The notes: a model not told the origin generated them from the sequence alone. A DNA stretch of 64,000 nucleotides from an uncultured Pseudomonadota bacterium (GCA_903831455.1 CAIKXV010000192.1:8281-72280); one strand, 5' to 3'; positions 29,724-48,255 are shown, counted from the first letter of the stretch. Program-made: numbers and translations.

Positions 29724-32700
29724 TCAGCGTGCGCATCTCGCCGACTCGCGACGCTCGACCAGGGTGAACCGCGACACCTCGCCCTCGCGGGTCAGCAGTT
29801 CGAACGCCTCATCACCGACCGGGACGATGCGCCGCACGTCCGGAAACGTCTGCCCGGGGTACGGATAGCGCCGGACGAGATGGCCACCCTGCACCATCCA
29901 GAAGCCGTCCGTCTGCCTGCGCGCGCCAGGTTGCAAGTCGTCGATGCGCAGGCGGCCATCGTCGAGCAGCGTGACGTTGTAGGACCTCAGCGAGTCCCGG
30001 GTCGACCAGACGCCGACGAAGCGGCAGGGAATCTGCGGCACGGCCTTCGGCGAGCCTTGCCTCTCGAGTTCCGGCACGCTCGCGATCAGACCGGTACGGG
30101 CATCGACGCACGCGCGGGGATCGACCTCGCAGCGTTCGTGGTCCATGCGCCCCTCGTTGAAGTCCCGGACCAGCAGCAACTGCCCGAGTCCTGAAAGCAG
30201 CAGGAACGAGAGCGGGATGTAGATGATCAGCCGCACGCCCCACGCCACGGGCCAGGGCAGGCGGGTCGCGAGGACGCCCGTGGTCGCCGGCGACAGGCGC
30301 CGTCCGGCAGCGTTCTTCACCCGCGGAACCACGAGGCGACTCAGCAGCAGATAGGCCAGCAGCGGCAGCAGGACGGCCGCCGCCACCCACAGCGGCTGGC
30401 TCGGCCACCACCGCGAAAGGGTGTCCCGGAGGCCGGACGGCGAATCGGTGGCTTCGACCGCAGGCGCGGCCGGCGTCGTCTCGACCCGGAATCGCGGATC
30501 GTCGACCAGGCGCGCCTGCACCAGCAGCGCCTCGTCCGCATCGGCGGCGAACCCGGCGCAGCCAGCCCGGGCCTGGTAGAGCCCCTGCCCCACGCCACCG
30601 GCCGGCATCCCGACCGCCACGATCGCGCCATCGGGCAGCACCAGCACGCGTCCGCTTCCCCGCTCCAGTCCGATCCCCGGATCAGGCAGCCAGCGCACCT
30701 TCGCGGTCGTCGGGTCGAACACCGAAGGCGGGTCGATCGAGATCGCGCAGCCGTCGGGCAGCAAGGCGGCCTGTCCACCCATCCGCTCGCGCGGAAGAAT
30801 GTAGGTCCAGAGGTTCTTCGCCGGGTCCCACAGCATCCGTGGGCCGGCCGGACGCTGGGCCGAGCGGTCTTCGACGGTGGAGCCGTCCTTGGTAACCCGG
30901 AATGCAAACAGTACCCCGGCGTCGCCGTCCCAGAACTGCGCGGCCAGGGGGCTGACATCGACCGCTGTGCCACCTCCAGGCACGTTCAGCTGCGCCAGGG
31001 GTTTCGTCGGTTTGATCGGCGCACGGTAACCGAGGTCCTCGGTCTGCCACAGCAGTGCCCCGACGGTGAAGGCCTGGCGGTCCTCGTCGTAGATCGCGCC
31101 GGTCCCCTGGTTGGCAACGACGGCGAGACGGCCGTCGGGAAGCGTACCGACCGTCATCGCGGCCGCGGCCGAGGCCGGCAACTCCGCCTCTCCGCACGCC
31201 CGCCACTCGGCCTGGGGCGGCATCAGGCAGTGGGCCTGCAGCCGGTAGCCGCGCCTGCTGTCTCCATCCGCGCCGACATGGACGATCAGCCCCGAGCGCA
31301 ACTGCGCGAGGCCGTGCACCGGGCCCGCCGAGAAACCAGGTCGAATTGCAGCACTCCAGCGCCGGGCGCGAGGATCCCACAGGTAGGCGTGGGTCTGCTC
31401 TGCGCCGGAGGCGGGCGAACTGTGCCCGACCACCAGGACCTCCCCGGAGGCCAGCGCCACGGCCGCGGGTGTGCGCGACCACGCCGGGGGCGCGATCTCG
31501 GGCACCGGTGGGCGCGGCGACCAGAGCAGCACGCGCGTGCCCGCGAAGATGCGCACGCGACCGTCGGCCAACGGTTCCAGGTCGGGCGTGACCTGCCATT
31601 CGTCGTCGGAGCGCGACACGGTGGCGTTGCCGGCGGGCAGCCAGCGCTGCTGACCGGCGTCGAGTACCCACGCCCAGGGCTCGCTGTAGGCGCTGGGGCT
31701 GAATTGCCGCCCGCCTGCGAGCAGTACTGCACCATTGCCCAGCAGCACCGCCGCGTGTTCGCGCAGCGCACGGGGGAGACGCGGCCCAGGGCTCCAGCGC
31801 CGGGTGGACGGATCGAAGATCTCGCTGCTGGGCAGCAGCCGGTCCGGGGAGGGTCCGCCGCCGTTTTCGCCGCCGACGACCAGCACGCGACCGTCGGACA
31901 GTCGCGTCGCACTGTGGGCATGACGCGCAGCCGCCATCGGCGGCAGCAACAGCCAGCGCCCCGCACGCGCATCCCACAGCTCGGCCGAGTCGAGGGCCTC
32001 GCCGGTCGCGCCGCGTCCGCCGACCACCAGCACCGACCCGTCCTGCAGCGCGGTCGCGGTGTGCCCCGCACGCGCGATCGACAGCGACGGCATCGCCTGC
32101 ATCCGCCCCGCCTCGAACCGCTCGACGCTGGCCAGCACGGGGAGCACATGGCCAAGATCGCCCACCGACGCGCGCGTGCCAGGGCCTTCCGTGACCGGTG
32201 CCGGATTCCCCGCCACCGGCGACAGCGCGGGGTCACTGTGTCCCCCGACCAGCAGCACGCTGCCGTCGGGCAGCGCCGTGGCGCTGTGCCGGACGCGCGT
32301 CTGGGTCAGATCCGGTCCGGACTCCCACGCCTGGGTCGCGGCATTCCAGATCGACGTCGCCACGTGCGGCGTGCGTGGCGAGGTGTCGTCGGCCATGCGC
32401 GCCCGATCGCACAGCCCGCCCGCCATCAACACGCGCCCGTCACCCATCCGCGTGGCGGTGGGCATGAAGCTGTTGCCCTTGCAGCCGGGCGGCCGCGGCA
32501 GACGCTGCCAGCCTTTTCCATCGCCTCGCCACAGCAGCGGCTCGGCATGCGGGGCAACATGTACCTCGGATCCATGATCGAACCGGTTGCGCAAGGTGAT
32601 CACCGGCTCACCATTGCGGCGCAGGGCGTCATCGAGCACGCGGTCGCCGAACAGCAGCACCCCGCCGTCGGGCAACACGGTGCTGGTCCATGCCTTCCTG

Positions 32701-32891
32701 CCCTGCGGGTACGCGCCCAGCACGCGCAGGCGGCCCGCGGTCGCCGCTTCGGCTGCAGCCAGTCGCGCCTCGGCGGACGAGTTCGGCGGCTCGATCGGCC
32801 CCTGCGCGCAGGCAGAGGCAGCCGCGACGGCAAGCCCAAGCGCGACCGTACATCGGCCAGCCACCGTCCGGATCCGCAACATCGACATCAT
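29724..32891 (-). CDS. Large exported Kelch-repeat (beta-propeller) protein with two C-proximal transmembrane helices and a Cys-containing C-terminal domain
   Basis: ORF 29724..33212; ATG 32891 after GGGGAG. Signal MMSMLRIRTVAGRCTVALGLAVAAASACAQ. Repeated Kelch signature (RHSATALPDGSVLLVGG, GHTATALQDGSVLVVGG, AHSATRLSDGRVLVVGG, AAVLLGNGAVLLAGG, TRMGDGRVLMAGG). Hydrophobic helices LWVAAAVLLPLLAYLLL and LIIYIPLSFLLLSGLGQLLLV. Confidence 0.75.
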   Translation of the reverse strand: MMSMLRIRTVAGRCTVALGLAVAAASACAQGPIEPPNSSAEARLAAAEAATAGRLRVLGAYPQGRKAWTSTVLPDGGVLLFGDRVLDDALRRNGEPVITLRNRFDHGSEVHVAPHAEPLLWRGDGKGWQRLPRPPGCKGNSFMPTATRMGDGRVLMAGGLCDRARMADDTSPRTPHVATSIWNAATQAWESGPDLTQTRVRHSATALPDGSVLLVGGHSDPALSPVAGNPAPVTEGPGTRASVGDLGHVLPVLASVERFEAGRMQAMPSLSIARAGHTATALQDGSVLVVGGRGATGEALDSAELWDARAGRWLLLPPMAAARHAHSATRLSDGRVLVVGGENGGGPSPDRLLPSSEIFDPSTRRWSPGPRLPRALREHAAVLLGNGAVLLAGGRQFSPSAYSEPWAWVLDAGQQRWLPAGNATVSRSDDEWQVTPDLEPLADGRVRIFAGTRVLLWSPRPPVPEIAPPAWSRTPAAVALASGEVLVVGHSSPASGAEQTHAYLWDPRARRWSAAIRPGFSAGPVHGLAQLRSGLIVHVGADGDSRRGYRLQAHCLMPPQAEWRACGEAELPASAAAAMTVGTLPDGRLAVVANQGTGAIYDEDRQAFTVGALLWQTEDLGYRAPIKPTKPLAQLNVPGGGTAVDVSPLAAQFWDGDAGVLFAFRVTKDGSTVEDRSAQRPAGPRMLWDPAKNLWTYILPRERMGGQAALLPDGCAISIDPPSVFDPTTAKVRWLPDPGIGLERGSGRVLVLPDGAIVAVGMPAGGVGQGLYQARAGCAGFAADADEALLVQARLVDDPRFRVETTPAAPAVEATDSPSGLRDTLSRWWPSQPLWVAAAVLLPLLAYLLLSRLVVPRVKNAAGRRLSPATTGVLATRLPWPVAWGVRLIIYIPLSFLLLSGLGQLLLVRDFNEGRMDHERCEVDPRACVDARTGLIASVPELERQGSPKAVPQIPCRFVGVWSTRDSLRSYNVTLLDDGRLRIDDLQPGARRQTDGFWMVQGGHLVRRYPYPGQTFPDVRRIVPVGDEAFELLTREGEVSRFTLVERRESARCAR

Positions 32892-33301: not shown

Positions 33302-34324
33302 ATGCACCCCACGCTTCCCCTGCTCGCAGACACCGACTTCCCGCCGATCCGGCGCCGTTCCCTGGACACCCTCCAGGTCAACCTGGGTTACCGCTGCAAC
33401 CAGAGCTGCCTGCACTGCCACGTCGCCGCCAGCCCGCAGCGCACCGAGATGATGGGCGGCGACACCATCGCGCTGGTGCTCGACGTGCTGCGTGAACGCA
33501 AGGTCTCGACGCTGGACCTCACCGGCGGCGCGCCAGAGCTCAACGAGCACTTCCGCGAACTGGTGCGGCAGGCCCGGGCGCTGGGCGTTCGCGTCATCGA
33601 CCGTTGCAACCTCACCATCCTGTCCGAACCCGGCCAGGAGGATCTGGCGGCCTTCCTGGCCGAGCAGCGTGTCGAGGTGACCGCATCGCTGCCCTGCTAC
33701 TCGCCGGCCAACGTCGACCGCCAGCGCGGCGATGGCGTGTTCGATCGCAGCATCGCCGGCCTGCGGCAACTCAATGCGCTGGGCTTTGGCGACCCGGCGC
33801 ACGGCCTGGTGCTCAACCTCGTCTACAACCCGCAGGGCCCTTCGCTGCCGCCACCGCAGGGCCCACTCGAGGCCGATTACAAGCGCGAACTGCTGCAGCA
33901 TTTCGGGATCCGCTTCGACCACCTGTTCGCCCTGACCAACATGCCCATCCAGCGCTTCGGCAGCACGCTGGTCAGCAAGGGCACCTTTGCCGATTACATG
34001 CGCCTGCTGCGCGAAGCCTATCGACCCGCCAACCTCGAGACCGTGATGTGTCGCAGCCTGCTCAGCGTCGACTGGAACGGGTTCCTGTACGACTGCGACT
34101 TCAACCAGATGCTGGGCCTGCCCGCCTCCCTTCAAGGCCATGAGCACCCGCACCTGAGGGACCTCCTGCGCCATGACCCGGTCGATGCGGATATCCTCGT
34201 CGCGGATCACTGCTACGGATGCACCGCAGGCCAGGGCAGCAGTTGCGGAGGGGCCCTGGAGTCGGACACCGCTCCCTCGATGTCCGCGGCGTCGGCCCGC
34301 GATCCGGGCAGAGTGGCCCGATGA
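33302..34324 (+). CDS. arsS: Radical SAM/Cys-rich domain protein, ArsS family (arsenosugar-biosynthesis radical SAM type; Cys version, no in-frame TGA)
   Basis: 340 aa. Features: radical SAM CNQSCLHC, DLTGGAPELN, and C-terminal CDFNQ ... HCYGCTAGQGSSCGG Cys-rich tail. The stop overlaps the next start (ATGA at 34321). Confidence 0.75.
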   Translation: MHPTLPLLADTDFPPIRRRSLDTLQVNLGYRCNQSCLHCHVAASPQRTEMMGGDTIALVLDVLRERKVSTLDLTGGAPELNEHFRELVRQARALGVRVIDRCNLTILSEPGQEDLAAFLAEQRVEVTASLPCYSPANVDRQRGDGVFDRSIAGLRQLNALGFGDPAHGLVLNLVYNPQGPSLPPPQGPLEADYKRELLQHFGIRFDHLFALTNMPIQRFGSTLVSKGTFADYMRLLREAYRPANLETVMCRSLLSVDWNGFLYDCDFNQMLGLPASLQGHEHPHLRDLLRHDPVDADILVADHCYGCTAGQGSSCGGALESDTAPSMSAASARDPGRVAR

Positions 34325-36486
34325 CCCGTCCCCCGAGGAGCGTGCTCTGGATCGCCACCCTTGCGGTTGCCGCCGCGGCGTTCTGGGCCTGGCAGCAGTT
34401 CGAGCTGGGCTCCCTGCTGACGCTCGACGGACTGAAGGCCAGCCGCGACACGCTGCAGGCGCAGGTCCAGGCGCAGCCGCTGACGGCCGCCGCGATCTTC
34501 TTCGCCGGGTACGTCGTGGCCACGGCGCTTTCGATCCCGGGCGCGCTGGTCCTGACCCTGGCCGCCGGTGCCCTCTTCGGCCTGGCCTGGGGTCTGGTCC
34601 TCGTGAGTTTCGCCTCCAGCCTGGGCGCCCTGCTCGCCTTCCTCGTGGCGCGCCACCTCCTGCGCGACTGGGTCCAGGCACGCTTCGGCAAGGTGCTGGA
34701 CCCCATCAACGAGGGCATCCGGAAGGACGGGACGTTCTACCTGCTGACCCTGCGACTGGTACCGGTGTTCCCGTTCTGGCTGATCAACCTCCTCATGGGG
34801 CTGACGCCGATCAGCGCCGGACGCTTCTATGTCGTCAGCCAGGTCGGCATGCTGGCTGGCACCGCGGTGTACGTGAACGCGGGCACGCAACTCGCCGCCA
34901 TCCAGTCGCCCGGCGACATCCTGTCGCCCGGGTTGCTCGGCAGCTTCGTGCTGCTGGGCCTGTTCCCGCTGCTGGCGAGGGCGTGCGTCGGGTGGCTGCA
35001 GCGACGCAAGGTCTATGCGAGATGGACGAAGCCGAAGCGCTTCGACCGCAACCTGGTGGTCATCGGTGCCGGTGCAGGCGGGCTGGTGTCGGCCTACATC
35101 GCGGCGGCGGTGAGGGCCAAGGTCACGCTGATCGAAGGCCACAGGATGGGGGGCGACTGCCTGAATTACGGCTGCGTGCCCAGCAAGGCGCTGATCCGCT
35201 CGGCCACGATGGCCCGGCAGCTGAAGAAGGCGCACGAGCTGGGCGTTGCCGAGGCGGCGGGACGCGTCGACTTCGCGGCGGTGATGCAGCGCGTGCATCG
35301 CGTCATCCGCGACATCGCGCCCCACGACTCGGTCGAACGCTACACCGGGCTGGGCGTCGAGGTGCTGCAGGGGCATGCCCGCATCACAAGCCCGTGGACC
35401 GTCGAGGTGAAGCTCGCCGATGGCCGTACGCAGACGCTGAGCACGAAGGCCATCGTGATCGCGGCAGGTGCCCGCCCGTTCGCCCCGCCGCTCCCGGGGC
35501 TGGCCGAGGCCGGCTACCTCACGAGCGACACCCTCTGGGGACTGACCGAACTGCCGAAGCGCCTCGTCGTGCTGGGCGGCGGTCCGATCGGCAGCGAACT
35601 CGCCCAGAGCTTCGCACGCCTGGGCAGCGCGGTCACGCAGGTGGAAATGGCCTCGCGCATCCTGCTGCGCGAGGATCCCGAGGTGTCTGATCTCGTGGCC
35701 GCTTCGCTACGTGCCGATGGCGTGAAGCTGCTCACCGGGCACCAGGCGATACGGGTGGAGGTGGTCGATGGCGAGAAGCGCCTGGTCGCGAGGCACGGCG
35801 ATGCGGACGTCTCCATCCCCTTCGACGAGCTGCTGTGCGCCGTGGGCCGCAGCCCGCGCGTTGCAGGCTACGGCCTCGAGGAGCTGGGCATCCCGCTGAC
35901 CCCGCGCGGGACGATCGAGACGAACGCGTACCTCCAGACCCTCTACCCCAACATCTACGCGGTCGGCGATGTAGCCGGCCCCTTCCAGTTCACGCACGCC
36001 GCGGCCCACCAGGCCTGGTACGCAGCGGTGAACGCGCTGTTCGGGCGCTTTCGCCGCTTCAAGGCCGATTACCGGGTGGTCCCGTGGGCGACCTTCACCG
36101 ATCCCGAGGTGGCGCGGGTGGGCCTGAGCGAGAGCGAAGCCGCGCAACAGGGAATCGCCTGCGAGGTGACGAAATACGGGCTCGACGACCTCGACCGGGC
36201 CATCGCCGACGGCAGCGCGCACGGCTTCGTCAAGGTGCTCACCGCGCCGGGGACGGACCGCATCCTGGGCGTGACCATCGTCGGTGAACATGCCGGCGAC
36301 CTGCTCGCCGAGTACGTACTGGCCATGAAGCACGGCCTCGGGCTGAACAGGATCCTTGGCACGATCCATACCTATCCGACGTTGGCCGAGGCAAACAAGT
36401 ACGCCGCGGGCGAGTGGAAGCGCGCGAACGCGCCGCAGGGACTGCTGCGCTGGGTAGGCCGCTACCACGCGTGGGAGCGGACATGA
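34321..36486 (+). CDS. Fusion protein: DedA/TVP38/TMEM64 (SNARE-associated) membrane domain + class-I FAD-dependent pyridine nucleotide-disulfide oxidoreductase (mercuric reductase/lipoamide dehydrogenase-like)
   Basis: Frame of ORF 34219..36486, ATG 34321. N-terminal half has about 5 hydrophobic helices (e.g. YLLTLRLVPVFPFWLINLLMG). Then VVIGAGAGGLVSAY, redox-active GGDCLNYGCVPSKAL, a second dinucleotide fold VVLGGGPIGSELAQ, AVGDVAG, and C-terminal HTYPTLAE. Confidence 0.85.
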   Translation: MTRPPRSVLWIATLAVAAAAFWAWQQFELGSLLTLDGLKASRDTLQAQVQAQPLTAAAIFFAGYVVATALSIPGALVLTLAAGALFGLAWGLVLVSFASSLGALLAFLVARHLLRDWVQARFGKVLDPINEGIRKDGTFYLLTLRLVPVFPFWLINLLMGLTPISAGRFYVVSQVGMLAGTAVYVNAGTQLAAIQSPGDILSPGLLGSFVLLGLFPLLARACVGWLQRRKVYARWTKPKRFDRNLVVIGAGAGGLVSAYIAAAVRAKVTLIEGHRMGGDCLNYGCVPSKALIRSATMARQLKKAHELGVAEAAGRVDFAAVMQRVHRVIRDIAPHDSVERYTGLGVEVLQGHARITSPWTVEVKLADGRTQTLSTKAIVIAAGARPFAPPLPGLAEAGYLTSDTLWGLTELPKRLVVLGGGPIGSELAQSFARLGSAVTQVEMASRILLREDPEVSDLVAASLRADGVKLLTGHQAIRVEVVDGEKRLVARHGDADVSIPFDELLCAVGRSPRVAGYGLEELGIPLTPRGTIETNAYLQTLYPNIYAVGDVAGPFQFTHAAAHQAWYAAVNALFGRFRRFKADYRVVPWATFTDPEVARVGLSESEAAQQGIACEVTKYGLDDLDRAIADGSAHGFVKVLTAPGTDRILGVTIVGEHAGDLLAEYVLAMKHGLGLNRILGTIHTYPTLAEANKYAAGEWKRANAPQGLLRWVGRYHAWERT

Positions 36487-37346
36487 GCGCCGGATCCCGA
36501 CGCGCCTGGCTGGCAGCCGTACTGAACACGACGACCTCGCTGGTCCTGCTGCGGGCCGACGCCCTGCGCGCCCAGGCGACGCCCGGCTTCGACCACTCGC
36601 ACGCCGCGTGGACGAACCTGCTGCGAAAGCACGTCCGGCTGGTCCGGGGCGGGCAGGCATCGCAGGTATCCTATGCAGGCTTTGCGACGGACCGCGCAGC
36701 CCTCAGGGCCTACCTCGACAGCCTGTCGGCCGTGACGCCCGCCACGTTCGCAGGCTGGACCACGCCCGAGCGCCAGGCCTTCCTGATCAACGCCTACAAT
36801 GCCTTCACCGTCGAACGGGTGCTCACGCGGTATCCCGACCTGAAGTCCATCAGGGACCTGGGCACCCTGCTCGCGAGTCCGTGGCGACCGAGATGGATCC
36901 CGCTGCTGGGCAGCAAGGTCTCGCTCGACGACATCGAACACGCGATGCTGCGCAAGCGCGGTGACTACGACGACCCGCGAATCCACTTCGCCGTCAACTG
37001 CGCGAGCATCGGCTGCCCTGCCTTGCGCGAGGACGCGTTCGTCGCGGCCCGCCTCGATGCCCAGCTGGACGAGCAGACGCTGAGGTTCATGGGCGACCGT
37101 ACGCGAAACCGCTGGAATGCCGCGCGGGGGAGGCTGGAACTGTCGAAGATCTTCGACTGGTACGGCGAGGATTTCCGCCTCGGGCACCGGGGCATCGCGT
37201 CGCTGGCTGCATTTGCAGCGCGCCATGCAGACGCCCTGGCGGACACGCCCTCCGACCGTGAACGCATCCGCAGCGGTCGGGTCGACATCGCCTTCATCGA
37301 GTACGACTGGGCCCTGAACGACGTGCGCGCCGGCGACGCGCGATGA
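36483..37346 (+). CDS. DUF547 domain-containing protein (secreted/periplasmic?)
   Basis: Frame of ORF 36414..37346. ATG 36483 overlaps the upstream stop (ATGA). Features: FLINAYNAFTV, VSLDDIEH..LR, DPRIHFAVNCASIGCPAL, ELSKIFDWYGEDF. These match my recollection of DUF547. Confidence 0.7.
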   Translation: MSAGSRRAWLAAVLNTTTSLVLLRADALRAQATPGFDHSHAAWTNLLRKHVRLVRGGQASQVSYAGFATDRAALRAYLDSLSAVTPATFAGWTTPERQAFLINAYNAFTVERVLTRYPDLKSIRDLGTLLASPWRPRWIPLLGSKVSLDDIEHAMLRKRGDYDDPRIHFAVNCASIGCPALREDAFVAARLDAQLDEQTLRFMGDRTRNRWNAARGRLELSKIFDWYGEDFRLGHRGIASLAAFAARHADALADTPSDRERIRSGRVDIAFIEYDWALNDVRAGDAR

Positions 37347-37695
37347 CGCCGGTGCGGTCCATCCTGATGCCCGCAGTGGTCGAGGCGATCGGCTTCGAGG
37401 CCGCACGGCGAATGCCGCGCGGGCTTCGCGCGCGCAGCGTCCGGGTCTCGCGGGCCGATGGCGGCGCAGGCGGCGGCACGGTCCGGGGCGCAGCACCGCC
37501 GGCGGATGCGCGGGTCGCCTTGCGCACTCATGTATACCGGATGCGCGCGGTCGTCACCGCGAACCCCGCGGGTACGATGCATCGCCAGCCGGTCGACGGC
37601 CGCCCCTCTCTGCTCGCCGATCGCACGCATCGCGCGTATCGGTGCCGGATGAAAACGGCCTGCCCCTTCATGACCCGGCCGCTGGGGCGCCGCAG

Positions 37696-38880
37696 GTGAA
37701 GCGCCTGCTTCTCGCCGGCGCGGGCCATGCGCACGCATTCGTCCTCGAGTCGCTGATCAGGCAACCGATGCCCGGGGTTGACGTCGTGCTGGTCTCGCCC
37801 GAGCCGCTGGCGCCGTACTCGGGGATGGTGCCCGGCTGGCTGTCGGGCCACTATCGATTCGACGAGATCGTCATCGATTTCCGGTCCCTCGTCGCGGCCG
37901 CCGGCGCACGCTGGGTGCAGGGAGAACTCCACGGTCTGGATCCCGCGCAGCGCCTCGTCCGGCTGGTCGGTGGCTCGTCGATGGGCTACGACGTGCTGTC
38001 CCTGAATGTCGGCTCGACGCTGTACCCGCCGTGGCATGGACACGCCCAGTTGCTGCCGCTGAGACCGCTGTCGTTGCTCCGGGAACGTTACGAACGCGTG
38101 CTCGAGCGCTGGAGCCGGGACCCTTCTTGCAGCCCGTTCGTCGTCACGGCCGTGGGCGGCGGCGCGGCGGGAGTCGAGGCGCTCCTGGCCGTCCTCGCCC
38201 GTCTCCGGGCCTTGCGCCCGGACCGCATCGTGCGCGGCCACCTGCGCACGCGCGGACCCACGCTGCTGGCCGACCTTGCGCCGCCGGCCCGACGGGCAGC
38301 CTGTCGCGCGCTGGATCGCGCCGGCGTGGCCGTCGAAACCGACAGCGCGTGGTCCGCGCAGATCGACCGCCACAGCGATCTCGTCATCTGGGCTACCGGC
38401 GCACAGGCGCAGCCCTGGCAGCGCGCTCCCGCGCGGCGCGGTGCGCTGGCGGTCGACGCACAGGGCTTCATCCGCATCGATCCCCAGCTTCGATCCATCT
38501 CCCATCCCGACATCCTGGCCGCCGGCGACTGCGCGAGCTGGACGGAGCGCACCTTGCCCAAGGCAGGCGTGCATGCCGTGCGAATGGGACCCGTGCTCGC
38601 CACCAACCTGCGCGCCGCCCTGCTCGGCCCCGAGGTTGGCGGAGCCTTCATCGAGCACCGGCCACAGCGGCACGCCCTGTCGCTGCTGTCCATCGGCGCG
38701 GGCCGCGCCATCGCCTCGCGCGGGACACTCGGCGCCGAAGGCGCGTGGGCGTGGCGATGGAAGGACCGTATCGACCGCCGATTCGTGAGCCGGTTTCGCA
38801 CGACCCGGCCCGATTGCGCGACGGCAGCCCCCACCCCGCTCGCCGACGGATCCAGTACGACCCCGGGTACCCCTCGATGA
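37696..38880 (+). CDS. FAD/NAD(P)-dependent pyridine nucleotide-disulfide oxidoreductase-family protein (NDH-2-like; resembles the class found fused or adjacent to SelD)
   Basis: ORF 37642..38880. I favour GTG 37696 (VKRLLLAGAGHAHAF...); ATG 37642 is the alternative. Features: VSPEPLAPYSGMVPGWLSGHY, VTAVGGGAAGVE, ILAAGDCA. Confidence 0.7.
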   Translation: MKRLLLAGAGHAHAFVLESLIRQPMPGVDVVLVSPEPLAPYSGMVPGWLSGHYRFDEIVIDFRSLVAAAGARWVQGELHGLDPAQRLVRLVGGSSMGYDVLSLNVGSTLYPPWHGHAQLLPLRPLSLLRERYERVLERWSRDPSCSPFVVTAVGGGAAGVEALLAVLARLRALRPDRIVRGHLRTRGPTLLADLAPPARRAACRALDRAGVAVETDSAWSAQIDRHSDLVIWATGAQAQPWQRAPARRGALAVDAQGFIRIDPQLRSISHPDILAAGDCASWTERTLPKAGVHAVRMGPVLATNLRAALLGPEVGGAFIEHRPQRHALSLLSIGAGRAIASRGTLGAEGAWAWRWKDRIDRRFVSRFRTTRPDCATAAPTPLADGSSTTPGTPR

Positions 38881-39779
38881 AGCCGACTCGTCGTCACGCC
38901 TGCAGCGTGCTGCTGGGCAGTGTCCTCGCCCTGCCCTCGCTCACGACCGCGCAGCGTTCCCCGGCGGCCGGGCCGCTCAGGTTCGGGGTCGGGATGTTCC
39001 AGCCCGACCGCGAGCGAAACGACGCCTCCTACAGGCCCCTCGCCGCCTATCTTGCGCAGCAACTCGGCCGACCGGTCCAGTTGCGCACCGTCGACACCTG
39101 GGAGGGGCTGGCTCGCAGCCTGTCGACCGGGGAGACCGATCTGGCGCTGATGGGGCCATGGGGCTACGTGCTGGCCAATCACTTCAGCGACGCCCAGGTG
39201 GTCGCGACCATCCTCTACCAGGGCAAGCCCGAGTACTTCGCCCTGATCGTCACGCACCCGGGCTCCGGGCTGAACAGCCTCGACGACCTGCTGGGCACGA
39301 AAGGCATCGGGCGCACTTTCGCCTTCGGCGACAAGGGCTCGACCTCCGGGTATCTGATCCCGTTCCACGAGTTCCAGAAACGCGGCATCGATCCCGAGAA
39401 GCACTTCGCGCGGGTACTCCACACGAAGCACCAGGCGATCCAGATCCAGGTCACCGCGGGCAAGCTCGACGCCGGGGCGGACTTCAATCGAAATCGCGAC
39501 GTGATGATCGCCCAGGGCCTGATCAGCGCGGCGAACAGCAGGATCATCTGGCAGTCGCAGCCCCTGCCCAACGACGCCTTCGCGGTGAGTTCGGTGCTCG
39601 CGAAGGACACGGCGTTCGTCACGCGCCTGCAGGCTGCCCTGACCGGTATCGGCCCGCGGCTTGCCACCCAGCCGAACCTGCTGCCGCCCGACTACACGGG
39701 CTTCATCGCCAGCGCACACAGCGCCTACAAACCGATCCGCGATGCCGGGTTGGCCACCGGAAAGCTGGTCGCGCGATGA
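38877..39779 (+). CDS. phnD: PhnD-family ABC transporter periplasmic substrate-binding protein (phosphonate/phosphite/oxyanion type)
   Basis: ATG 38877 overlaps the upstream stop (ATGA). Signal MKPTRRHACSVLLGSVLALPSLTTA. Features: DLALMGPWGYV and FGDKGSTSGYLIP. Confidence 0.75.
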   Translation: MKPTRRHACSVLLGSVLALPSLTTAQRSPAAGPLRFGVGMFQPDRERNDASYRPLAAYLAQQLGRPVQLRTVDTWEGLARSLSTGETDLALMGPWGYVLANHFSDAQVVATILYQGKPEYFALIVTHPGSGLNSLDDLLGTKGIGRTFAFGDKGSTSGYLIPFHEFQKRGIDPEKHFARVLHTKHQAIQIQVTAGKLDAGADFNRNRDVMIAQGLISAANSRIIWQSQPLPNDAFAVSSVLAKDTAFVTRLQAALTGIGPRLATQPNLLPPDYTGFIASAHSAYKPIRDAGLATGKLVAR

Positions 39780-40681
39780 CCCGTTCGGGTCCGATCCCTC
39801 CGGACGGACCGCGCCCCGGGCGTCGGTTCGCCGGACGCACGGGCTTCGCCGCGCTGGCGGTGCTGTACGGGGCACTGGTCGGGGTGTGCCTGGCGACGCT
39901 CGTGGGTGCGGGCGACCTGAGCCTGGGCCGCAACCCGATCGAGAACCTGGCCAGGACCGTCGGCGAGTTCCTGCGCCCCAGCTTTCTGGACGTCTGGCTC
40001 GGTCCGGAGCGGCTGGAATACCGCAGCGACGACGGCAGCGTGCTCAGGGTGGAGAACCGCCGCGAGGTCGAGGCCGGTTTCCTGGCCGCCACGGCGCGCG
40101 CCACCTGGGTCACCTTCCAGATCGCGACGCTGGGCTCCCTGCTGGCCGCGCTGATGGGCCTGCCCCTGGCCCTGCTGGTCGCACGAAACCTGCGCGCCCC
40201 GCGCCTCCTGGCATGGATGGCGAAGGGCATCCTCGACGTGTCGCGCTCCGTCCACACGCTGGTCTTCGGTCTGATCCTGGTCGGCATCGTCGGATTGGGG
40301 CCCACCGCCGGCGTCCTGGCCATTGCGCTGCACTCGATGGGAACCTGCGGCAAGCTGTTTGCCGAGAGCATCGAGTCGATGGACATGGCAGCGATCGACG
40401 CCGTCCGAGCGACCGGGGCGTCCGAGGCCCAGGTCTTCTTCCATGGCGTGTGGCCATCCGTCCTGCCGCAGATCGTGAGCCACCACCTCTACGTCTGGGA
40501 ATTCAACATCCGCGACTCGACCATCCTCGGCCTGATCGGTGCCGGCGGCCTCGGCCTGCTGATCAGCGAGGCGGTGAGTCTGTTCCAGTGGGACCGGTTG
40601 AGCACGCTGCTGATCGTGGTGGTGGCGCTGGTGATGGCCTTCGACGCGCTGTCGCGTCGGATCCGGGAGGCGCTGCTGTGA
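39776..40681 (+). CDS. phnE: PhnE-like ABC transporter permease
   Basis: ATG 39776 overlaps the upstream stop (ATGA). Multiple TM helices. EAA-loop-like IDAVRATGASEAQVFFHGVWPSVLPQIVS, then IRDSTILGLIGAGGLG. Confidence 0.8.
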   Translation: MTRSGPIPPDGPRPGRRFAGRTGFAALAVLYGALVGVCLATLVGAGDLSLGRNPIENLARTVGEFLRPSFLDVWLGPERLEYRSDDGSVLRVENRREVEAGFLAATARATWVTFQIATLGSLLAALMGLPLALLVARNLRAPRLLAWMAKGILDVSRSVHTLVFGLILVGIVGLGPTAGVLAIALHSMGTCGKLFAESIESMDMAAIDAVRATGASEAQVFFHGVWPSVLPQIVSHHLYVWEFNIRDSTILGLIGAGGLGLLISEAVSLFQWDRLSTLLIVVVALVMAFDALSRRIREALL

Positions 40682-40691
40682 AGGCTGTCCG

Positions 40692-41540
40692 ATGAGCACT
40701 GCCATCCGCATGGAGGGGATGCGGGTAGCCCTCGCCGGGCGTGTGGTCCTCGACGTGCCACGCCTGGTCATCGAGACCGGCGAGCGTGTCGCCATCGTCG
40801 GTCCCAATGGTGCGGGCAAGAGCATGTTGCTGAAGGTGATCGGCGCCGGGGTCCCGGCCCGACACGGGCAGGTCCACGTGCTGGGGTACTCGCTGGGCCC
40901 TGACCCCTCGGAGGGGGAAGGCACCCACCGTGCGCTCGCACCCGACGCGCGACGCGCGCTGCGCCGCGATACCGGGCTGTTGATGCAGGGCCTGCACCTC
41001 GTGCAGCGCCTGAGCGCCCGGGAGAACGTGCTGATTGGCGCGCTGGCCCGGCTCCACGGCGTGCACGCGCTGCGGAGCTGGGCCCGCTGGTACCCGACGG
41101 ACCTGGTCGCCGAGGCCGATGCCATGCTCACGGCCCTGGGGCTGGCCGATCGAGTCGGAACGCGAGCCGATCGGCTGTCGGGCGGCGAACGGCAGAAGGT
41201 GGCGCTCGCCCGGATGCTGCTGCAGAGACCCCGGCTGATCCTCGCCGACGAGCCGACCTCGGCGCTGGACCCGACCGCAACACGCGAGGTCTGTGCCGCA
41301 CTGGTCGGCGCGGCCGCCGATCGGGATCGGACGCTCGTGACCGTCGTGCATGACCTGGACTTGCTGCCCGCCCTGTCCACGCGCGTGATCGGAATACGCG
41401 CGGGGTGCATCGCCTGGGACCTGCCCACGGGCCGGGTAACGCCGCAGCGACTGCAGGCCCTGTATGGGCAGCCCCCCGTGCAGGCCGATGGTCCCGAGGT
41501 CGACCCGCCGGCCGCGCCGAATGCCGGTTGGCAGGCCTGA
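40692..41540 (+). CDS. phnC: PhnC-like ABC transporter ATP-binding protein
   Basis: Walker A GPNGAGKS, signature LSGGERQKVALAR, Walker B LILADEPTSALD, and PhnC-like ENVLIGALARL. Confidence 0.85.
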   Translation: MSTAIRMEGMRVALAGRVVLDVPRLVIETGERVAIVGPNGAGKSMLLKVIGAGVPARHGQVHVLGYSLGPDPSEGEGTHRALAPDARRALRRDTGLLMQGLHLVQRLSARENVLIGALARLHGVHALRSWARWYPTDLVAEADAMLTALGLADRVGTRADRLSGGERQKVALARMLLQRPRLILADEPTSALDPTATREVCAALVGAAADRDRTLVTVVHDLDLLPALSTRVIGIRAGCIAWDLPTGRVTPQRLQALYGQPPVQADGPEVDPPAAPNAGWQA

Positions 41541-41559
41541 GCCTCTACCTGTGTCCGCA

Positions 41560-42615
41560 ATGGATTCGACGAAGATGACCGACACCCTCGAGCAGGCACC
41601 CACGCCGCACCCAGGGCGCAGTTGCCCCCTGCACTACCGCTATGCGCCGGAGGTGTTCCGCGAACAGGCCCCGCCGCGGCTGCAATCGCTGGAGGTGCTG
41701 TATGTCGTCGGCGGGTTGTACGGGAACGAGCCTGCGCTGCAGGCGGTGCTGGATCTCTTCGCCCGGGAGAGCGGTCGAAAGCGCCTGGTGTTCAACGGCG
41801 ACTTCCACTGGTTCGATACCGATCCCGCCCGATTCTCGCGGGTGCAGGCGGCAGTGCTCGAGCACGAGGCGCTCCGCGGCAACGTCGAGACGGAACTCGC
41901 CGAAGAACCCGGCAGCGATGATGCGGGGTGTGGCTGTGCGTATCCGGAGTGGGTCGGCGATGAAGTGGTGGAGCGCTCGAACCGGATCCTCGCGCGGTTG
42001 CGTCGCACGGTGGCACCACGGCAGCAGGCGGAGTTGTCGGCGCTGCCGATGTGGGGGCGCGCCGATGTCGGTGAGCTTCGCCTGGGGATCGTGCATGGCG
42101 ATGCCACTTCGCTCTCGGGATGGGGCTTCTCCCAGGAGCATTTGCGTGACCCGGGGCATCGCGAGACCGTGCGCGGCTGGCTCGAGCGAGCGGCGGTCGA
42201 TGCATTCGCGTGTACGCACACCTGCCTGCCCGTCTTCCAGGAGGTGCGGGTACCCGCCGCCGAGCCGCCGCGCTGGATCCTGAACAACGGTGCAGCCGGC
42301 ATGCCCAATTTCTCGGGGGATACGGCCGGCCTGCTGACCCGGGTGGCCGTGACGCCCTATCGCGGGCCTGGGCGCCGATTCGGATTCGTCGCGCCACGCG
42401 GAAACATCCACGTCGACGCGATCGGCATCGAGTTTTCGACCGATGCATGGCTGGCGCAGTTCTGCAGGGACTGGCCGCCGGGCAGTGACGCCCATGATTC
42501 CTATTTCAATCGACTGGCCAGGGGACCCGACTATCACCCTGCGGAGGCCCTCCGCGTCGACGCGGGTGTGCGCTCGCCGCTTTCCCGGGGACGGGCCGGA
42601 ATTCAGCGGACCTGA
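41560..42615 (+). CDS. Divergent calcineurin-like metallophosphoesterase-fold protein (function unknown)
   Basis: Frame of ORF 41464..42615, ATG 41560. Ordered motif remnants: VVGGLYGN (in place of DxH), NGDFHWFD (GDxxDR-like), LRGNVE (GNHE-like), IVHGD, CTHTC (GHxH-like). Also a GCGCAYPEW Cys pair. Confidence 0.5.
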   Translation: MDSTKMTDTLEQAPTPHPGRSCPLHYRYAPEVFREQAPPRLQSLEVLYVVGGLYGNEPALQAVLDLFARESGRKRLVFNGDFHWFDTDPARFSRVQAAVLEHEALRGNVETELAEEPGSDDAGCGCAYPEWVGDEVVERSNRILARLRRTVAPRQQAELSALPMWGRADVGELRLGIVHGDATSLSGWGFSQEHLRDPGHRETVRGWLERAAVDAFACTHTCLPVFQEVRVPAAEPPRWILNNGAAGMPNFSGDTAGLLTRVAVTPYRGPGRRFGFVAPRGNIHVDAIGIEFSTDAWLAQFCRDWPPGSDAHDSYFNRLARGPDYHPAEALRVDAGVRSPLSRGRAGIQRT

Positions 42616-42629
42616 GGGAGCACAGGCGG

Positions 42630-43376
42630 ATGCCCTCGCGCACGGCAGGGGTTGCATCGCGGTCGGTGGGCGGCGGCGCGCTGCTGCTGGTGATGCTCTC
42701 GGCCGCAGTCCACGCGGCTTCGCTCGCTCCGCTGGCCGGTCCCGAGGGTGCAACGCCGCAGGCGCCCTGGGTGTTCTCAGGGCTTCCCGGCCAGTCGCTT
42801 CCCGCAACCCGCTTCATGTTCGACCGGCTGGAAGACCGCACGGTCCTTCGCATCCAGACCGCCGGGTCCTATGGAAACCTTGTCCATCCGCTGGCGGCCT
42901 CGTCCGCCGGGCGCCTGTCCTGGCGCTGGCGGGTCGACCTGCCGCTGAAGTCCGCCGACCTGCGCAGCCGCCCGGGCGACGACGTCGCGCTGAAGGTCTG
43001 CGCGCTGTTCGACATGCCACGGGACTCGGTGCCCTTCCTCGATCGTCAACTGCTGCGGCTCGCCGAGACCCGCACAGGGCAGCCGCTTCCCACGGCGACC
43101 GTGTGCTACGCGTGGGACCCCTCGTCACCTGCCGGCACCGTGGTGCCGAATGCCTACAGCCGGCGCGTGCGCTATATCACCCTCGGCATGCCGCCGCGTA
43201 CCTGGCAGGCGGTGAGCCGGAACCTGGCCGACGACTTCATCCGCGCCTTCGGCGACGAGGCGACCACCGTCCCCCCGTTACGCGCCATCGCCGTCGGGGC
43301 CGATGCCGACAATACGGGCGGCAGCAGCATCGGCTTCATTGCCGACCTCGAATGGACGCCAACCGGGACACGCTGA
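42630..43376 (+). CDS. DUF3047 domain-containing exported protein
   Basis: 248 aa with GAGGGAG RBS. Signal ...GGGALLLVMLSAAVHAAS. Features: LSWRWRV, GDDVALKVCALFD, and AIAVGADADNTGG, as I recall for DUF3047. Confidence 0.6.
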   Translation: MPSRTAGVASRSVGGGALLLVMLSAAVHAASLAPLAGPEGATPQAPWVFSGLPGQSLPATRFMFDRLEDRTVLRIQTAGSYGNLVHPLAASSAGRLSWRWRVDLPLKSADLRSRPGDDVALKVCALFDMPRDSVPFLDRQLLRLAETRTGQPLPTATVCYAWDPSSPAGTVVPNAYSRRVRYITLGMPPRTWQAVSRNLADDFIRAFGDEATTVPPLRAIAVGADADNTGGSSIGFIADLEWTPTGTR

Positions 43377-43525: not shown

Positions 43526-45670
43526 TCAGCGCGCGGCTACCCCCGGCCCCGGCCCACGCGCGAACCAGCTGAGCGCATCGCCACGGATCTCGCCCATGTG
43601 CACGACGCCGATCGAGCAGTCGATACCGGGCTTCGCGTCCTCGCCGTCACACTCGCCGAATGTTCCCGAAATCCACACCTCGTAGTGGCCATCCCGGTCG
43701 AGGTCCGTCACCGCGGAGATCGTTCCGCTGTTGTACTGGAACTGGAAGCGTGAGGGGATACCGACTGGGCGCACACCTTCGGGCCCGACAAGCAGCAGCA
43801 CCCGGTCGCCCAACCACGGCCACCACGGCCGCGCGACGTCGTCGCTGAACCGGGACAGCCTGAGTTCCACGAGGCCACGGCCGCCACGCGGAGAACGCCA
43901 GCCCGAGACCCCCCCTTCGATCTGCAACCGTTGCGCCGCCAGCGTGTCCAGCACGGCTTGCAGGGCGTCGCCCTGCCCGGGGCGCAGCGCGTCCACGATC
44001 AACCGCAGCGCCCGCACCGGGTCCTCCGGTTCGGCGCGCGCTGACCGAGAGGCTGGCCGCCTCGCCGGCGTAAAGCGCTCCGTCCGCGTGAGCCTGCGAC
44101 CCCACGCCCTCCCCACCGCCTGCGGCGCGCCCACCGCCGCCCTGCAGACCGCCTCGGTCGAAGGGTCCCGAGGCGTGACGGCCTTTCCGAAGCAGGCATT
44201 ACCGTCTTCCGTGAGGCCGGCCACCAGCTCGTCATACGTCGTGCCCTGCAGCGAGCCGAGGATACGCGCGAGATCCGCACGAAGCGCCAGCACGTCCGGA
44301 TCGGACGGGTGCTTTTGCATCCACACCCACTCCGGTTGCGCGCATCGGCTTTCGCGACCCGATTTCAGCCTTTCAAGCATGTGCCGGGTCTGCAGCGACG
44401 GGGGCAGGTTCGCAAACCAGCCGCGGAGCACTGCGCACGGACGGTTCGCATCGTCGTCGAGTCGCGCGACCTCGACGCGTACCGCGGCGCGCAGCCGCGG
44501 CTGGTCGGGTAGTGCATCGAAGCCGCGCCACGGACTGACCGGCTTGTTGTAGGAATCGATCTCGAGGTTCCAGCGCCTGACGTAGGGGTCGAGGAAGTCC
44601 TCGCGCAACCGGCTCATCCGCACGAGGGTTCGCGCCAGCGCATCGGCGGGCCAGGCCTTCGGGGCGTGGGCCACCGACTGCAGCTGCGCCCGCAACCACT
44701 GCGCGCGACGCAGTCCGGCCTGGTAGCGCTCGCGGGCATCCTCGACCTTCGAGGAGACGAAATCGACGTACTCGCGCTGCGCCGGGGGCAGCGGCGCGTC
44801 GGGCGCCACCTCCGGATCGAGCCGCTGCAGCGCCTCGGCCAGCGCCGGGTCCGCCGGCGAGAGGCTCGCCCACGCGGCCGCGATCGTCACGCAATCGTCG
44901 GCACCCCGCGCGGTGCAGCGATCTGCCGCGAGCCACCGTGCGAATTCGGCCTCCAGGGCCGGCGTCGCGCGGGCGGCGACGGCCTCGCGCAGGCGCTGGT
45001 TCGCCTCCAGTTCGTGCTCGTTGAACGCCGGGCGATCAGCCAGCCGCCTGCGTACGCAGTGACCGAACTCCGACTCCTCAGGCGCGGAGCTGTTTGCCCC
45101 CAGGGGCCAACGGGTCAACTGCAGGTCCTGTCCATCGGGCGGCAGGCCATCTGCCCAGATCCATACGCGCTTGGGCAGGCATGACCAGAGCGCGAAGAAG
45201 ACGATCGCCCGCGTGCTCCAGGTCTCGTCGGGCCGCAGAAGCGCGCCCGTCAGCCTGCGCTCGCGCTGAACGAATTCCGTGTTCCACGGAAACCAGCGCC
45301 ACATCTGCCGGGCAACGTCTGAAGGACGCTCGGCGACCAGCACCGTGTCGAGCCGGGCGGCGAGCTGCACCCCTGCCCATCGCTCCCGGAACAACCGCTG
45401 GGCGAAGTCCGGCGCCGCGAGTAGGCGCTGCAGGCTCTCCGGGGATGCGGCCTCCGGCCGGAACGCAGCACGATCGGCTGCACGCAGTTCGCCGTAGGCC
45501 CGGAGTTCCCTCACGACCGCCGCGAGCGCGGGGTCAGGTGCAAGGGGCGCGGCCTCGGGGGACCGAGAGGGCTCGCCGGCAGCCCACGCGCAAGGGGCCA
45601 GCAGGATCAGGCACATCGATACCCAGCGCAGGGCGATGAACCGGAAACGACCGCCTGGCAGAGCGTTCAT
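43526..45670 (-). CDS. Large exported Cys-rich hypothetical protein with a C-terminal FG-GAP/Ca-binding-like DxDxDG motif
   Basis: ORF 43526..45712. ATG 45670 gives MNALPGGRFRFIALRWVSMCLILLAPCAWAAG as signal. About 12 Cys spread through the mature part. C-terminal VTDLDRDGHYEVWISGTFGECDG. I recognise no other family. Confidence 0.6.
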   Translation of the reverse strand: MNALPGGRFRFIALRWVSMCLILLAPCAWAAGEPSRSPEAAPLAPDPALAAVVRELRAYGELRAADRAAFRPEAASPESLQRLLAAPDFAQRLFRERWAGVQLAARLDTVLVAERPSDVARQMWRWFPWNTEFVQRERRLTGALLRPDETWSTRAIVFFALWSCLPKRVWIWADGLPPDGQDLQLTRWPLGANSSAPEESEFGHCVRRRLADRPAFNEHELEANQRLREAVAARATPALEAEFARWLAADRCTARGADDCVTIAAAWASLSPADPALAEALQRLDPEVAPDAPLPPAQREYVDFVSSKVEDARERYQAGLRRAQWLRAQLQSVAHAPKAWPADALARTLVRMSRLREDFLDPYVRRWNLEIDSYNKPVSPWRGFDALPDQPRLRAAVRVEVARLDDDANRPCAVLRGWFANLPPSLQTRHMLERLKSGRESRCAQPEWVWMQKHPSDPDVLALRADLARILGSLQGTTYDELVAGLTEDGNACFGKAVTPRDPSTEAVCRAAVGAPQAVGRAWGRRLTRTERFTPARRPASRSARAEPEDPVRALRLIVDALRPGQGDALQAVLDTLAAQRLQIEGGVSGWRSPRGGRGLVELRLSRFSDDVARPWWPWLGDRVLLLVGPEGVRPVGIPSRFQFQYNSGTISAVTDLDRDGHYEVWISGTFGECDGEDAKPGIDCSIGVVHMGEIRGDALSWFARGPGPGVAAR

Positions 45671-46133
45671 CGCCGGGCGGTAGTGGACCGGGGAACGCGC
45701 ATGGGTGTGCATCGCTTCGTCGATTCGCGGGGTGCCGCGCTCACCAGCACGGTGACTATCGCCACGGTAGAAACAGTCAACATTCGCCAGGGTTTTATCT
45801 CAGGAACTCTACAAGTAGCGGAACGGTTATGGCCATTAATCCGAGAACGCAGACAAGTGCGAAGTAGAGGCGATAGCGCGTAAGGCCCGTGCGAACGCCC
45901 TCAGCGGTGAGATGCTCCGCGACTCCGTGACAGTATCTGCACGAACAGAACGGTCGAGCTCTGACAGTACGTGCTGGTCGAGTTGAGGAAGCATGTATTG
46001 TGAGACCTGAGGACGCGCTGAGGTAATTGGTTTTCGGATGAGCCATCCACTCTGCGGTGGAGCCTACCGTCACGACACGCGTAACCCATTGTCGCATCGG
46101 AACTTTCAGGCCGCGTGTTTGCCGTCAACGTAC

Positions 46134-47744: not shown

Positions 47745-48185
47745 TCACCACGGTAAGCGCTCCGCAATGGCGTCGAGCGCCTGCTGTACCCGATCGTCGG
47801 CATCGCTCTGCAGGCTCAGAACCAGCGACAGCGGATCGACCAGCGCGGTGTCCGGCACCAAGGCCGGGTTGTAACTCCAAAGCTCCAGCTGGAGGGCCCC
47901 GGGCTCGGGTTCGGGCACCGTCTTCGCGCCCTGCCAGGAAGCGAGCTTCCATTGCGTAGGGCTGGGCGCGTCAGTCGGCCAAGCGGGTTCGACCAGCATC
48001 GACTGCCGCGCCAGCGCGCCGAGACTGGCAAGCCTGAGCTCCAGCACGGCAAGATCATGGGTCGGCAGCACCCAGTGCCGGCGCGTGGTCGGGCTGCGCA
48101 GCAGGGGCTTGCCGTGCTCCCAGGTCTCGCGGGCGGTGCGCTCGGTCTTCAGCCGACGTACCCTGCCGACACTGTCTGAGCTCAC
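47745..48185 (-). CDS. Hypothetical protein (146 aa), upstream of and co-oriented with abiEi/abiEii
   Basis: An ORF with acceptable composition that ends 97 nt before the antitoxin start. I recognise no family. It could be a remnant. Confidence 0.35.
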   Translation of the reverse strand: MSSDSVGRVRRLKTERTARETWEHGKPLLRSPTTRRHWVLPTHDLAVLELRLASLGALARQSMLVEPAWPTDAPSPTQWKLASWQGAKTVPEPEPGALQLELWSYNPALVPDTALVDPLSLVLSLQSDADDRVQQALDAIAERLPW

Positions 48186-48255
48186 CCTGAACCCTCGCCA
48201 GGGTAAGCCCTTGGTATACGCTCAAGTCCGTCACCCACAAACCTCGTGAGCCGCC

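Follow-up and report, generated by a model that had tools for sequence, protein, structure and literature searches.

What does an ArsS-type radical S-adenosylmethionine (rSAM) protein do when no gene for the methyltransferase ArsM lies nearby and its partners are membrane and redox proteins? The question is raised by a stretch of 64,000 nucleotides from an uncultured Pseudomonadota bacterium (GCA_903831455.1, CAIKXV010000192.1:8281-72280), hereafter the window. A preliminary description of this DNA had singled out three coupled genes at 33302-37346, encoding an arsS-like rSAM protein, a fusion of a DedA domain with a flavin adenine dinucleotide (FAD)-dependent disulfide reductase (DedA::FAD) and a DUF547 protein, and took the missing arsM and these partners to suggest a different substrate or a redox-supported reaction at the membrane. 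Comparison with related loci leads us to lean towards another explanation, namely a reduced version of a modular and widespread proteobacterial ArsS-type cluster acting in organoarsenic metabolism. The window has a G+C content of 70% and many TctC/Bug genes, and its nearest homologues are in Rubrivivax, Methylibium and Piscinibacter-like Burkholderiales.

The ArsS-family protein and its recurrent neighbours

The rSAM protein (340 aa, 33302-34324, + strand) scores 455 bits against the NCBIfam ArsS model TIGR04167, for which the equivalog cutoff is 300, and covers profile positions 2-303 of 303. Pfam identifies a Radical_SAM domain and a C-terminal DUF3641 domain (185 bits). As previously described, the protein carries the motif CNQSCLHC (CX3CX2C) and the tail HCYGCTAGQGSSCGG, with no internal stop codon, and in HCYGCTAGQGSSC cysteine occupies the position that is selenocysteine (Sec) in some members, so that the site given as GxxU for the family (PMC13188914) reads GSSC. 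By these motifs it is assigned to the ArsS family as a form whose Sec position is occupied by Cys. ArsS adenosylates dimethylarsenite (DMAs(III)) by means of the 5'-deoxyadenosyl radical of SAM, yielding 5'-deoxy-5'-dimethylarsinoyl-adenosine, and in Synechocystis arsS is co-transcribed with arsM (PMC13598754, bioRxiv 10.1101/2022.09.23.509062). With the ArsM domains of ArsS-ArsM fusion proteins as queries (two domains in all), tblastn found nothing in the 64 kb window, in agreement with the description of a trio without arsM.

To place the protein, one genome per species was scanned, which gave 80 loci with an rSAM protein 61-79% identical to that of the window, mostly from beta- and gammaproteobacteria. 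Cultured carriers of the cluster include Rubrivivax rivuli KYPY4, Caldimonas manganoxidans ATCC BAA-369, Roseateles puraquae CCUG 52769, Pseudomonas peli and Zhongshania guokunii. All open reading frames (ORFs) of the genome loci were clustered, hidden Markov models (HMMs) were built for the families and the loci were rescanned; the counts below refer to 83 loci or to the 45 long loci among them (at least 18 kb). A neighbour-joining tree built from 122 family members places the window together with all 83 genome loci in a single clade, within which ArsM-linked loci are interspersed with DedA-linked loci and with the window's own protein, so that nothing in the rSAM sequence points to a changed substrate. 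ArsM-rSAM fusion proteins fall among more distant family representatives, and two representatives outside the clade have unrelated gene contexts. In the tree, bona fide ArsS is represented by homologues that are fused to ArsM or lie next to arsM, the Synechocystis protein not being included. The association that had been named as evidence against a different substrate, clustering with bona fide ArsS together with an arsM nearby, is thus seen among the orthologues, but not in the 64 kb of the window.

Two kinds of variants were seen among the family representatives. P0132 and P0166 are ArsS-family proteins fused to a flavin-reductase domain or a CMD/AhpD-like domain, and such fusions are independent hints that the rSAM protein needs a dedicated redox partner. 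P0213 and P0252, sister to the proteobacterial clade, keep an N-terminal FPxIRR motif and are missing the CX3CX2C cysteines; they may be radical-SAM-dead paralogues.

The same neighbours recur beside these rSAM genes. The most frequent in the long loci are a GT2-like glycosyltransferase gene (32/45), DedA::FAD within 10 kb of the rSAM gene (30/45) and a DUF2064-like (NT) gene (24/45), followed by genes for a flavoprotein (16/45), a metallophosphoesterase (MPE)-fold protein (14/45), DUF3047 (11/45) and DUF547 (10/45) proteins, an ArsM-like methyltransferase (8/45), an SSS transporter (7/45), MTAP (6/45) and PhnD (5/45). DedA::FAD and GT2 co-occur in 22 long loci, and DedA::FAD is present in six of the eight with ArsM. 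The linkage of the trio is itself recurrent, since DedA::FAD directly follows the rSAM gene in 19 of the 83 loci, with the trio in its exact form in six. The GT2-like family corresponds to TIGR04283 (273 bits) and the DUF2064-like family to TIGR04282 (198 bits), both of which bear the NCBIfam name 'arsenosugar biosynthesis glycosyltransferase'. According to NCBIfam, the recurrent methyltransferase is arsenite-methyltransferase-like and the recurrent phosphorylase is MTAP, which would be expected to release adenine from an adenosine substituted at the 5' position.

In Thiobacillus (L014), the trio, GT2, DUF2064, the flavoprotein and ArsM stand in one array, and the Polaromonas cluster (L016) has all of these components plus MTAP; partners likewise share a cluster with arsM-like and TIGR04283/TIGR04282 genes in L012, L019, L028 and L054. 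In 15 of the 83 loci, scattered through the clade, the same clusters include ArsM-like genes that have the full set of four ArsM cysteine motifs. Because the same partners sit beside arsM in relatives, the absence of arsM from the window is not indicative of a different substrate. Nor do the partners take the place of ArsM.

A bufferin-type cluster (BufA1, MbnB/DUF692, HvfC, DoxX, ECF sigma factor and anti-sigma factor) lies directly upstream of the rSAM gene in one of the closest relatives (L087, 5248-2312, - strand). DUF692 genes are near the rSAM gene in 8 of the 83 loci (L087, L007, L010, L012, L014, L034, L065 and L077 included) and ECF sigma factor genes in 14. These neighbours may represent a link to metal stress.

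A ten-gene array with a glycosyltransferase relic

The coordinates and frames of the trio were borne out by the ORF and junction check, as were its two ATGA junctions, at which stop and start codons overlap by 4 nt. The trio is not self-contained, however. The chain of 4-nt overlaps continues through four more junctions after DUF547 (37343 ATGA, 37696 GTGA, 38877 ATGA and 39776 ATGA), and the unit is therefore a ten-gene operon-like array on the + strand, from 33302 to 43376, of which the trio is the head. DedA::FAD (721 aa, 34321-36486) and the DUF547 protein (287 aa, 36483-37346) are followed by a 118-codon ORF (orf118, 37343-37699), a flavoprotein gene with a GTG start (394 aa, 37696-38880), genes for a PhnD-family periplasmic binding protein (300 aa, 38877-39779), a PhnE-type ABC permease (301 aa, 39776-40681) and a PhnC-like ABC ATPase (282 aa, 40692-41540), a gene for a Cys-rich MPE-fold protein (346 aa, 41575-42615, alternative start 41560) and one for a DUF3047 protein (248 aa, 42630-43376). 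The six consecutive overlaps thus give way to gaps of 10, 34 and 14 nt. The ten gene calls were taken from contigs encoding an identical DedA::FAD protein, and the junctions were rechecked in the window.

Overlaps of 4 nt are the commonest junction type in operons of high-GC genomes. At the rSAM/DedA::FAD junction the overlap is 1 nt in the closest relatives (L085-L087), and conservation of the junctions in relatives means that they are not due to chance. The overlaps support co-transcription and probable translational coupling; they do not establish the fixed stoichiometry of expression that had been claimed from them. Between 32.8 and 43.7 kb, a scan for promoters and terminators detected neither a promoter-like site nor a terminator on the + strand, and an Rfam search at E <= 1 returned two sub-threshold chance matches only, with no riboswitch or leader.

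What sets the window apart from its closest relatives, whose rSAM proteins are 86-88% identical, is the slot between DUF547 and the flavoprotein. The relatives encode, in this sequence, rSAM, DedA::FAD, DUF547, GT2 (225 aa), DUF2064 (215 aa), the flavoprotein, PhnD, PhnE, PhnC and a 347-aa protein of the MPE type, with a variant arrangement including MTAP and DUF3047 in a third relative. The slot is thus filled by GT2 and DUF2064 in the relatives and by orf118 only in the window. Compared with the GT2 protein of L087, orf118 is 43% identical over 94 aa (pairwise E 6e-15), its homology being confined to the N-terminal ~60-94 codons and matching positions 9-59 of the GT2 HMM. Conserved GT2 motifs are altered (LNE to VVE, DGGSSDGT to DGGAGGGT) and the G+C content at second codon positions is raised to 0.65. 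DNA homology to L087 extends over 37200-37523 and resumes at ~37690; the same blocks are 1139 bp apart in L087, so that a net ~965 bp is missing from the window. No remnant of DUF2064 was detected in orf118, in the six frames of 37250-37800 or elsewhere in the window, and the TIGR04282 gene is present at the syntenic site in L086 and L087. Of the TIGR04283 gene only a minor part survives in the window copy, and of the TIGR04282 gene nothing.

The same 118-codon ORF was called on independent contigs from other samples, and is therefore not an assembly error in one contig. It keeps the 4-nt overlaps with both neighbours, so that coupling to the downstream genes is preserved. When arsM, MTAP, SSS, GT2 and DUF2064 genes were sought elsewhere in the window, the only matches were artefacts from over-extended ORFs. 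With both transferase genes lost and no arsM in 64 kb, no complete glycosylated arsenosugar is expected unless the functions are complemented in trans. Clusters that naturally lack the glycosyltransferase (GT) were found in L040, L041, L046, L056, L053 and L035. Those of the Pseudomonas type comprise rSAM, an SSS transporter, MPE, DedA::FAD, DUF3047 and the flavoprotein, and the window copy resembles them, which argues against simple decay. The oddity of the window stems from gene loss and not from a different design.

On the flanks, a Kelch-repeat protein of 1055 aa encoded upstream (29724-32891, - strand), divergent from the rSAM gene, was considered as a member of the system and rejected, because it keeps company with the operon only on near-identical contigs. 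Convergent on the end of the operon is a gene for a large protein of 728-757 aa (43526-45799, - strand) with no Pfam or NCBIfam match. Further on lies an AbiEii-type nucleotidyltransferase toxin gene (46134-47174, - strand; Pfam 161.9 bits), adjoined by an ORF without family match (47745-48221, - strand); these two are probably a type IV toxin-antitoxin or abortive-infection pair.

Predicted properties of the partner proteins

The description of the second gene product as a membrane-anchored disulfide reductase agrees with its domains and motifs. The DedA/VTT part (PF09335, 74.6 bits at aa 76-189) lies within a region, aa 1-264, with about five hydrophobic segments, the membrane domain itself being placed at aa 1-230 and the FAD domain at aa ~235-721, and the reductase part matches Pyr_redox_2 (206.9 bits) and Pyr_redox_dim (104.8 bits), with the redox motif CLNYGC (CxxxxC) at 280-285 and a His-Glu dyad in HTYPTLAE. 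The protein is accordingly classified, from these matches, as a class-I pyridine nucleotide-disulfide oxidoreductase joined to a DedA/VTT membrane domain. The FAD/NAD(P)H fold, CxxxxC motif, His-Glu dyad and dimerisation domain are shared with MerA, lipoamide dehydrogenase, glutathione reductase and RclA, and the nearest PDB chains are MerA (best, 257 bits) and lipoamide dehydrogenase. It is nevertheless not a mercuric reductase: the MerA model TIGR02053 gives 392.8 bits, below the cutoff of 454.45, and there is no C-terminal Cys pair, cysteines being present only at 222, 280, 285, 506 and 614 and the tail (...RYHAWERT) being Cys-free. Nor is there an NmerA domain, the N-terminus being DedA and not HMA. 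The DedA domain is shared with COG0398 proteins, putative phospholipid scramblases related to TMEM41B, VMP1 and Tvp38. For this subfamily, fusion to Pyr_redox_2/Pyr_redox_dim is reported more often than any other, with no function and no gene context given (PMC10127716), whereas the fusion in the window is tied to an ArsS cluster.

The DUF547 protein (PF04784, 85.6 bits; gathering threshold 27) does have the N-terminal hydrophobic segment that had been ascribed to it. This looks like a twin-arginine translocation (Tat) signal peptide rather than a membrane anchor: the N-terminus (GSRRAWLAAV...ALRAQA) is Tat-like and its RR is conserved across 31 homologues, and the protein is therefore probably periplasmic, as judged by this motif. 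An NCASxxCP motif is invariant, with C173 and C178 kept in the 31 homologues. A sequence search of the PDB found no relative. From 31 homologues, none less than 73% identical, AlphaFold2 (AF2) produced a model of poor quality (predicted local distance difference test, pLDDT, 62.5), and a Foldseek search with it against the PDB gave nothing below E = 1. The DUF3047 protein (Pfam 157 bits), likewise without a PDB relative, has a signal-like or transmembrane-like hydrophobic segment at aa 17-35.

The flavoprotein belongs to the 'N-terminal to SelD' type and scores 306.9 bits against TIGR03169, for which the cutoff is 310; its nearest PDB chains are NDH-2 (4nwz) and FSP1. The transporter genes belong to the families of the PhnCDE, PtxABC and HtxBCD importers of phosph(on)ate, phosphite and hypophosphite, with binding protein, permease and ATPase all represented. 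The binding protein matches Pfam Phosphonate-bd (181.8 bits) and exceeds the TIGR01098 cutoff of 112 (144.8 bits), but with 142 bits stays below the cutoff of 261 of the PhnD equivalog TIGR03431. The permease scores 232 bits against TIGR01097 (cutoff 217), and the ATPase, a Pfam ABC_tran protein, 159.7 bits against TIGR02315, below its cutoff. In contrast to the known importers, the set lies in an ArsS cluster and not in a phn, ptx or htx operon. In Roseateles puraquae (L047, 10750-15487), ArsM-like and MPE-fold genes lie inside a PhnD...PhnE-PhnC set directly after the rSAM gene, an arrangement that ties the transporter to the same pathway as the rSAM protein.

The 346-aa protein had no match in Pfam, including Metallophos, or in NCBIfam. 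Its AF2 model (pLDDT 82.6) found as best Foldseek match the Ap4A hydrolase/phosphodiesterase SapH (3qfm, E 1.7e-9), with a probability of 1.00 for 3qfm, 1nnw and 3rqz and template-modelling scores of 0.54 (query) and 0.73 (target). The model thus predicts the alpha/beta sandwich fold of calcineurin-like metallophosphoesterases. The metal motifs (GGLYGN, GDFHWFD, GNVE and VHGD) are partly degenerate relative to the canonical DxH, GD, GNH[DE], H and GHxH: GD and VHGD are present, and the altered motif I (GGLYGN) and motif III (GNVE) are invariant in homologues. Five cysteines are also invariant, including those in GCGCAYP and ACTHTC, and could mark a thiolate (arsenic-binding?) site replacing the usual dimetal centre. 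Some homologues (P0437, P0454, P0458 and P0470) are fused to DUF2064/TIGR04282.

Explanations of the locus and its probable place in organoarsenic metabolism

If the locus is a reduced ArsS-type cluster, its rSAM protein would catalyse, in the cytoplasm, the C-As adenosylation known for ArsS or one very close to it. The DedA-anchored reductase, perhaps together with the NDH-2-like flavoprotein, might supply the arsenical in trivalent, thiol-bound form, or keep it so, at the inner membrane face, and its COG0398-type DedA domain might move an amphipathic substrate or product across the membrane. Such a redox and transport role at the membrane is plausible. ArsL, a related C-As rSAM enzyme, needs As(V) to be pre-reduced by thiols (PMC13598754). 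The ArsL/ArsM arsinothricin pathway resembles the proposed one in that C-As bond formation by a radical SAM enzyme takes place on an arsenical in the trivalent state, pentavalent species having to be reduced beforehand; unlike the protein discussed here, ArsL is non-canonical, transfers a 3-amino-3-carboxypropyl group and belongs to another family and gene context. The DUF547 protein, presumably exported by the Tat system, and the DUF3047 protein, presumably exported as well, would act on the periplasmic side. The PhnDEC-like transporter may take up the substrate as an oxyanion; if this were a methylated arsenical, as is possible, no local arsM would be needed. The Cys-rich MPE-fold protein may process the adenosyl intermediate, a step for which relatives would use MTAP; its nucleotide-phosphodiesterase-like fold and the fusion of some homologues to TIGR04282 are in keeping with such a role.

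We hold this explanation to be rather probable, with modest confidence, and several observations weigh against it. Characterised ArsS is cyanobacterial, and representatives outside the proteobacterial clade are only 37-51% identical to the rSAM protein. The 64 kb window has no arsM, MTAP, TIGR04282 or intact TIGR04283 gene, and no ars resistance genes recur in the rSAM neighbourhoods. The roles suggested for the partners derive from domain type, localisation signals and neighbourhood, and the NCBIfam names of TIGR04282 and TIGR04283 were themselves given by association.

That this ArsS-like clade acts on another substrate (a selenium species, another metalloid, a thiol or, via the PhnD-type transporter, a P(III) compound), the view taken initially, seems unlikely to us. 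It would account for the missing arsM, which was not found in the loci of the closest relatives (L085-L087) either, for a flavoprotein of the SelD-fused type (TIGR03169), for a transporter of the phosphonate/phosphite family, for the want of recurrent ars resistance genes nearby and for the separation of the clade from the rest of the family. Yet ArsM-like genes are scattered through that very clade, the rSAM protein is well over the ArsS equivalog cutoff and ArsM-rSAM fusions occur in the family. The Sec of some members is the enzyme's own residue and says nothing of the substrate. We likewise doubt that the operon is a decaying relic, its pathway dead after the loss of two transferase genes and the rest becoming pseudogenes. 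The reduced GT2 with altered motifs, the vanished DUF2064 and the failure to find arsM and MTAP in the window would fit, but the nine other genes have intact reading frames and normal codon-position G+C, the relic still has its 4-nt overlaps with both neighbours, the same arrangement occurs on contigs from several samples and GT-less clusters are stable in Pseudomonas.

A further possibility concerns the partners alone: DedA::FAD, DUF547, DUF3047 and the flavoprotein might be an independent membrane redox or lipid-homeostasis module that merely lies beside ArsS genes. In a reverse comparison of 80 metagenome loci with DedA::FAD orthologues 60-85% identical, the rSAM gene was within 7 kb in 28. 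DUF3047, following DedA::FAD, was found in 30 of the 80, and there were 18 loci with the flavoprotein, 13 with DUF547 and 9 with ArsM. The 52 loci without rSAM within 7 kb still have DUF3047, DUF547 or the flavoprotein alongside. DedA::FAD, DUF3047, DUF547 and the flavoprotein therefore form a module of their own that often, but not always, joins the ArsS module, and with about two thirds of DedA::FAD loci lacking a nearby rSAM gene this redox module may have its own function, a point that also tells against the explanation we favour. The DedA COG0398::Pyr_redox fusion is moreover a common one, and aerobic metabolism is the only link made for it (PMC10127716). Mere juxtaposition nevertheless appears improbable: direct rSAM-DedA::FAD adjacency with overlapping stop and start codons is found across beta- and gammaproteobacteria (19/83), and in many loci DedA::FAD has rSAM on one side and GT2/NT on the other, a position difficult to account for unless the genes share a function.

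As a reduced ArsS-type cluster, the locus can be compared with the cyanobacterial arsM-arsS pathway of Synechocystis sp. PCC 6803 (TIGR04167, NF038099 ArsM, TIGR04282 and TIGR04283). The rSAM family, the CX3CX2C motif and the Cys-rich DUF3641 tail are the same, and in the relatives of the window the cluster holds arsM-like, TIGR04283 and TIGR04282 genes. The window copy differs in having no arsM in 64 kb, a truncated TIGR04283 gene and no TIGR04282 gene, its rSAM protein belongs to a separate proteobacterial clade, and DedA::FAD, DUF547, the NDH-2-like flavoprotein, the PhnDEC-like transporter, the Cys-rich MPE protein and DUF3047 are additions not described for that pathway. ArsS, ArsM, TIGR04282 and TIGR04283 are already known as curated families, and the core enzyme is ordinary. 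A literature search found no paper linking DedA::FAD, DUF547, DUF3047, a TIGR03169-like flavoprotein, an MPE-fold protein or a PhnDEC-like transporter to ArsS, and no functional study of the rSAM protein's partner genes. To our knowledge, no enzyme other than ArsS is known to catalyse the committed step to arsenosugars, and studies of ArsS have been confined to the cyanobacterial arsM-arsS context.

It is conceivable, though we give the idea little weight, that the beta- and gammaproteobacterial ArsS clade, its partners and a PhnD-type or SSS importer constitute a scavenging pathway, in which methylated arsenicals from the environment are imported, reduced at the membrane and adenosylated without ArsM. 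Substrates might be methylarsonate or dimethylarsinate, arsenic analogues of PhnD ligands. This would provide a first physiological role for the commonest DedA (COG0398) fusion, for DUF547 and for DUF3047, and the GT-less form, as in the window and in Pseudomonas, would end in an arseno-nucleoside or a lipid-bound derivative and not in a classical arsenosugar.

For annotation, the locus illustrates that the label 'arsenosugar biosynthesis' can mislead for an individual genome, both transferases having been lost here. In freshwater and soil Proteobacteria, which have thousands of ArsS homologues, the gene belongs to a modular cluster with at least six conserved partners. One of these is the DedA::flavoprotein-reductase fusion, listed in the DedA literature as common but unexplained, and the neighbourhood yields testable hypotheses for DedA::FAD, DUF547, DUF3047 and the degenerate Cys-rich metallophosphoesterase in organoarsenic metabolism.

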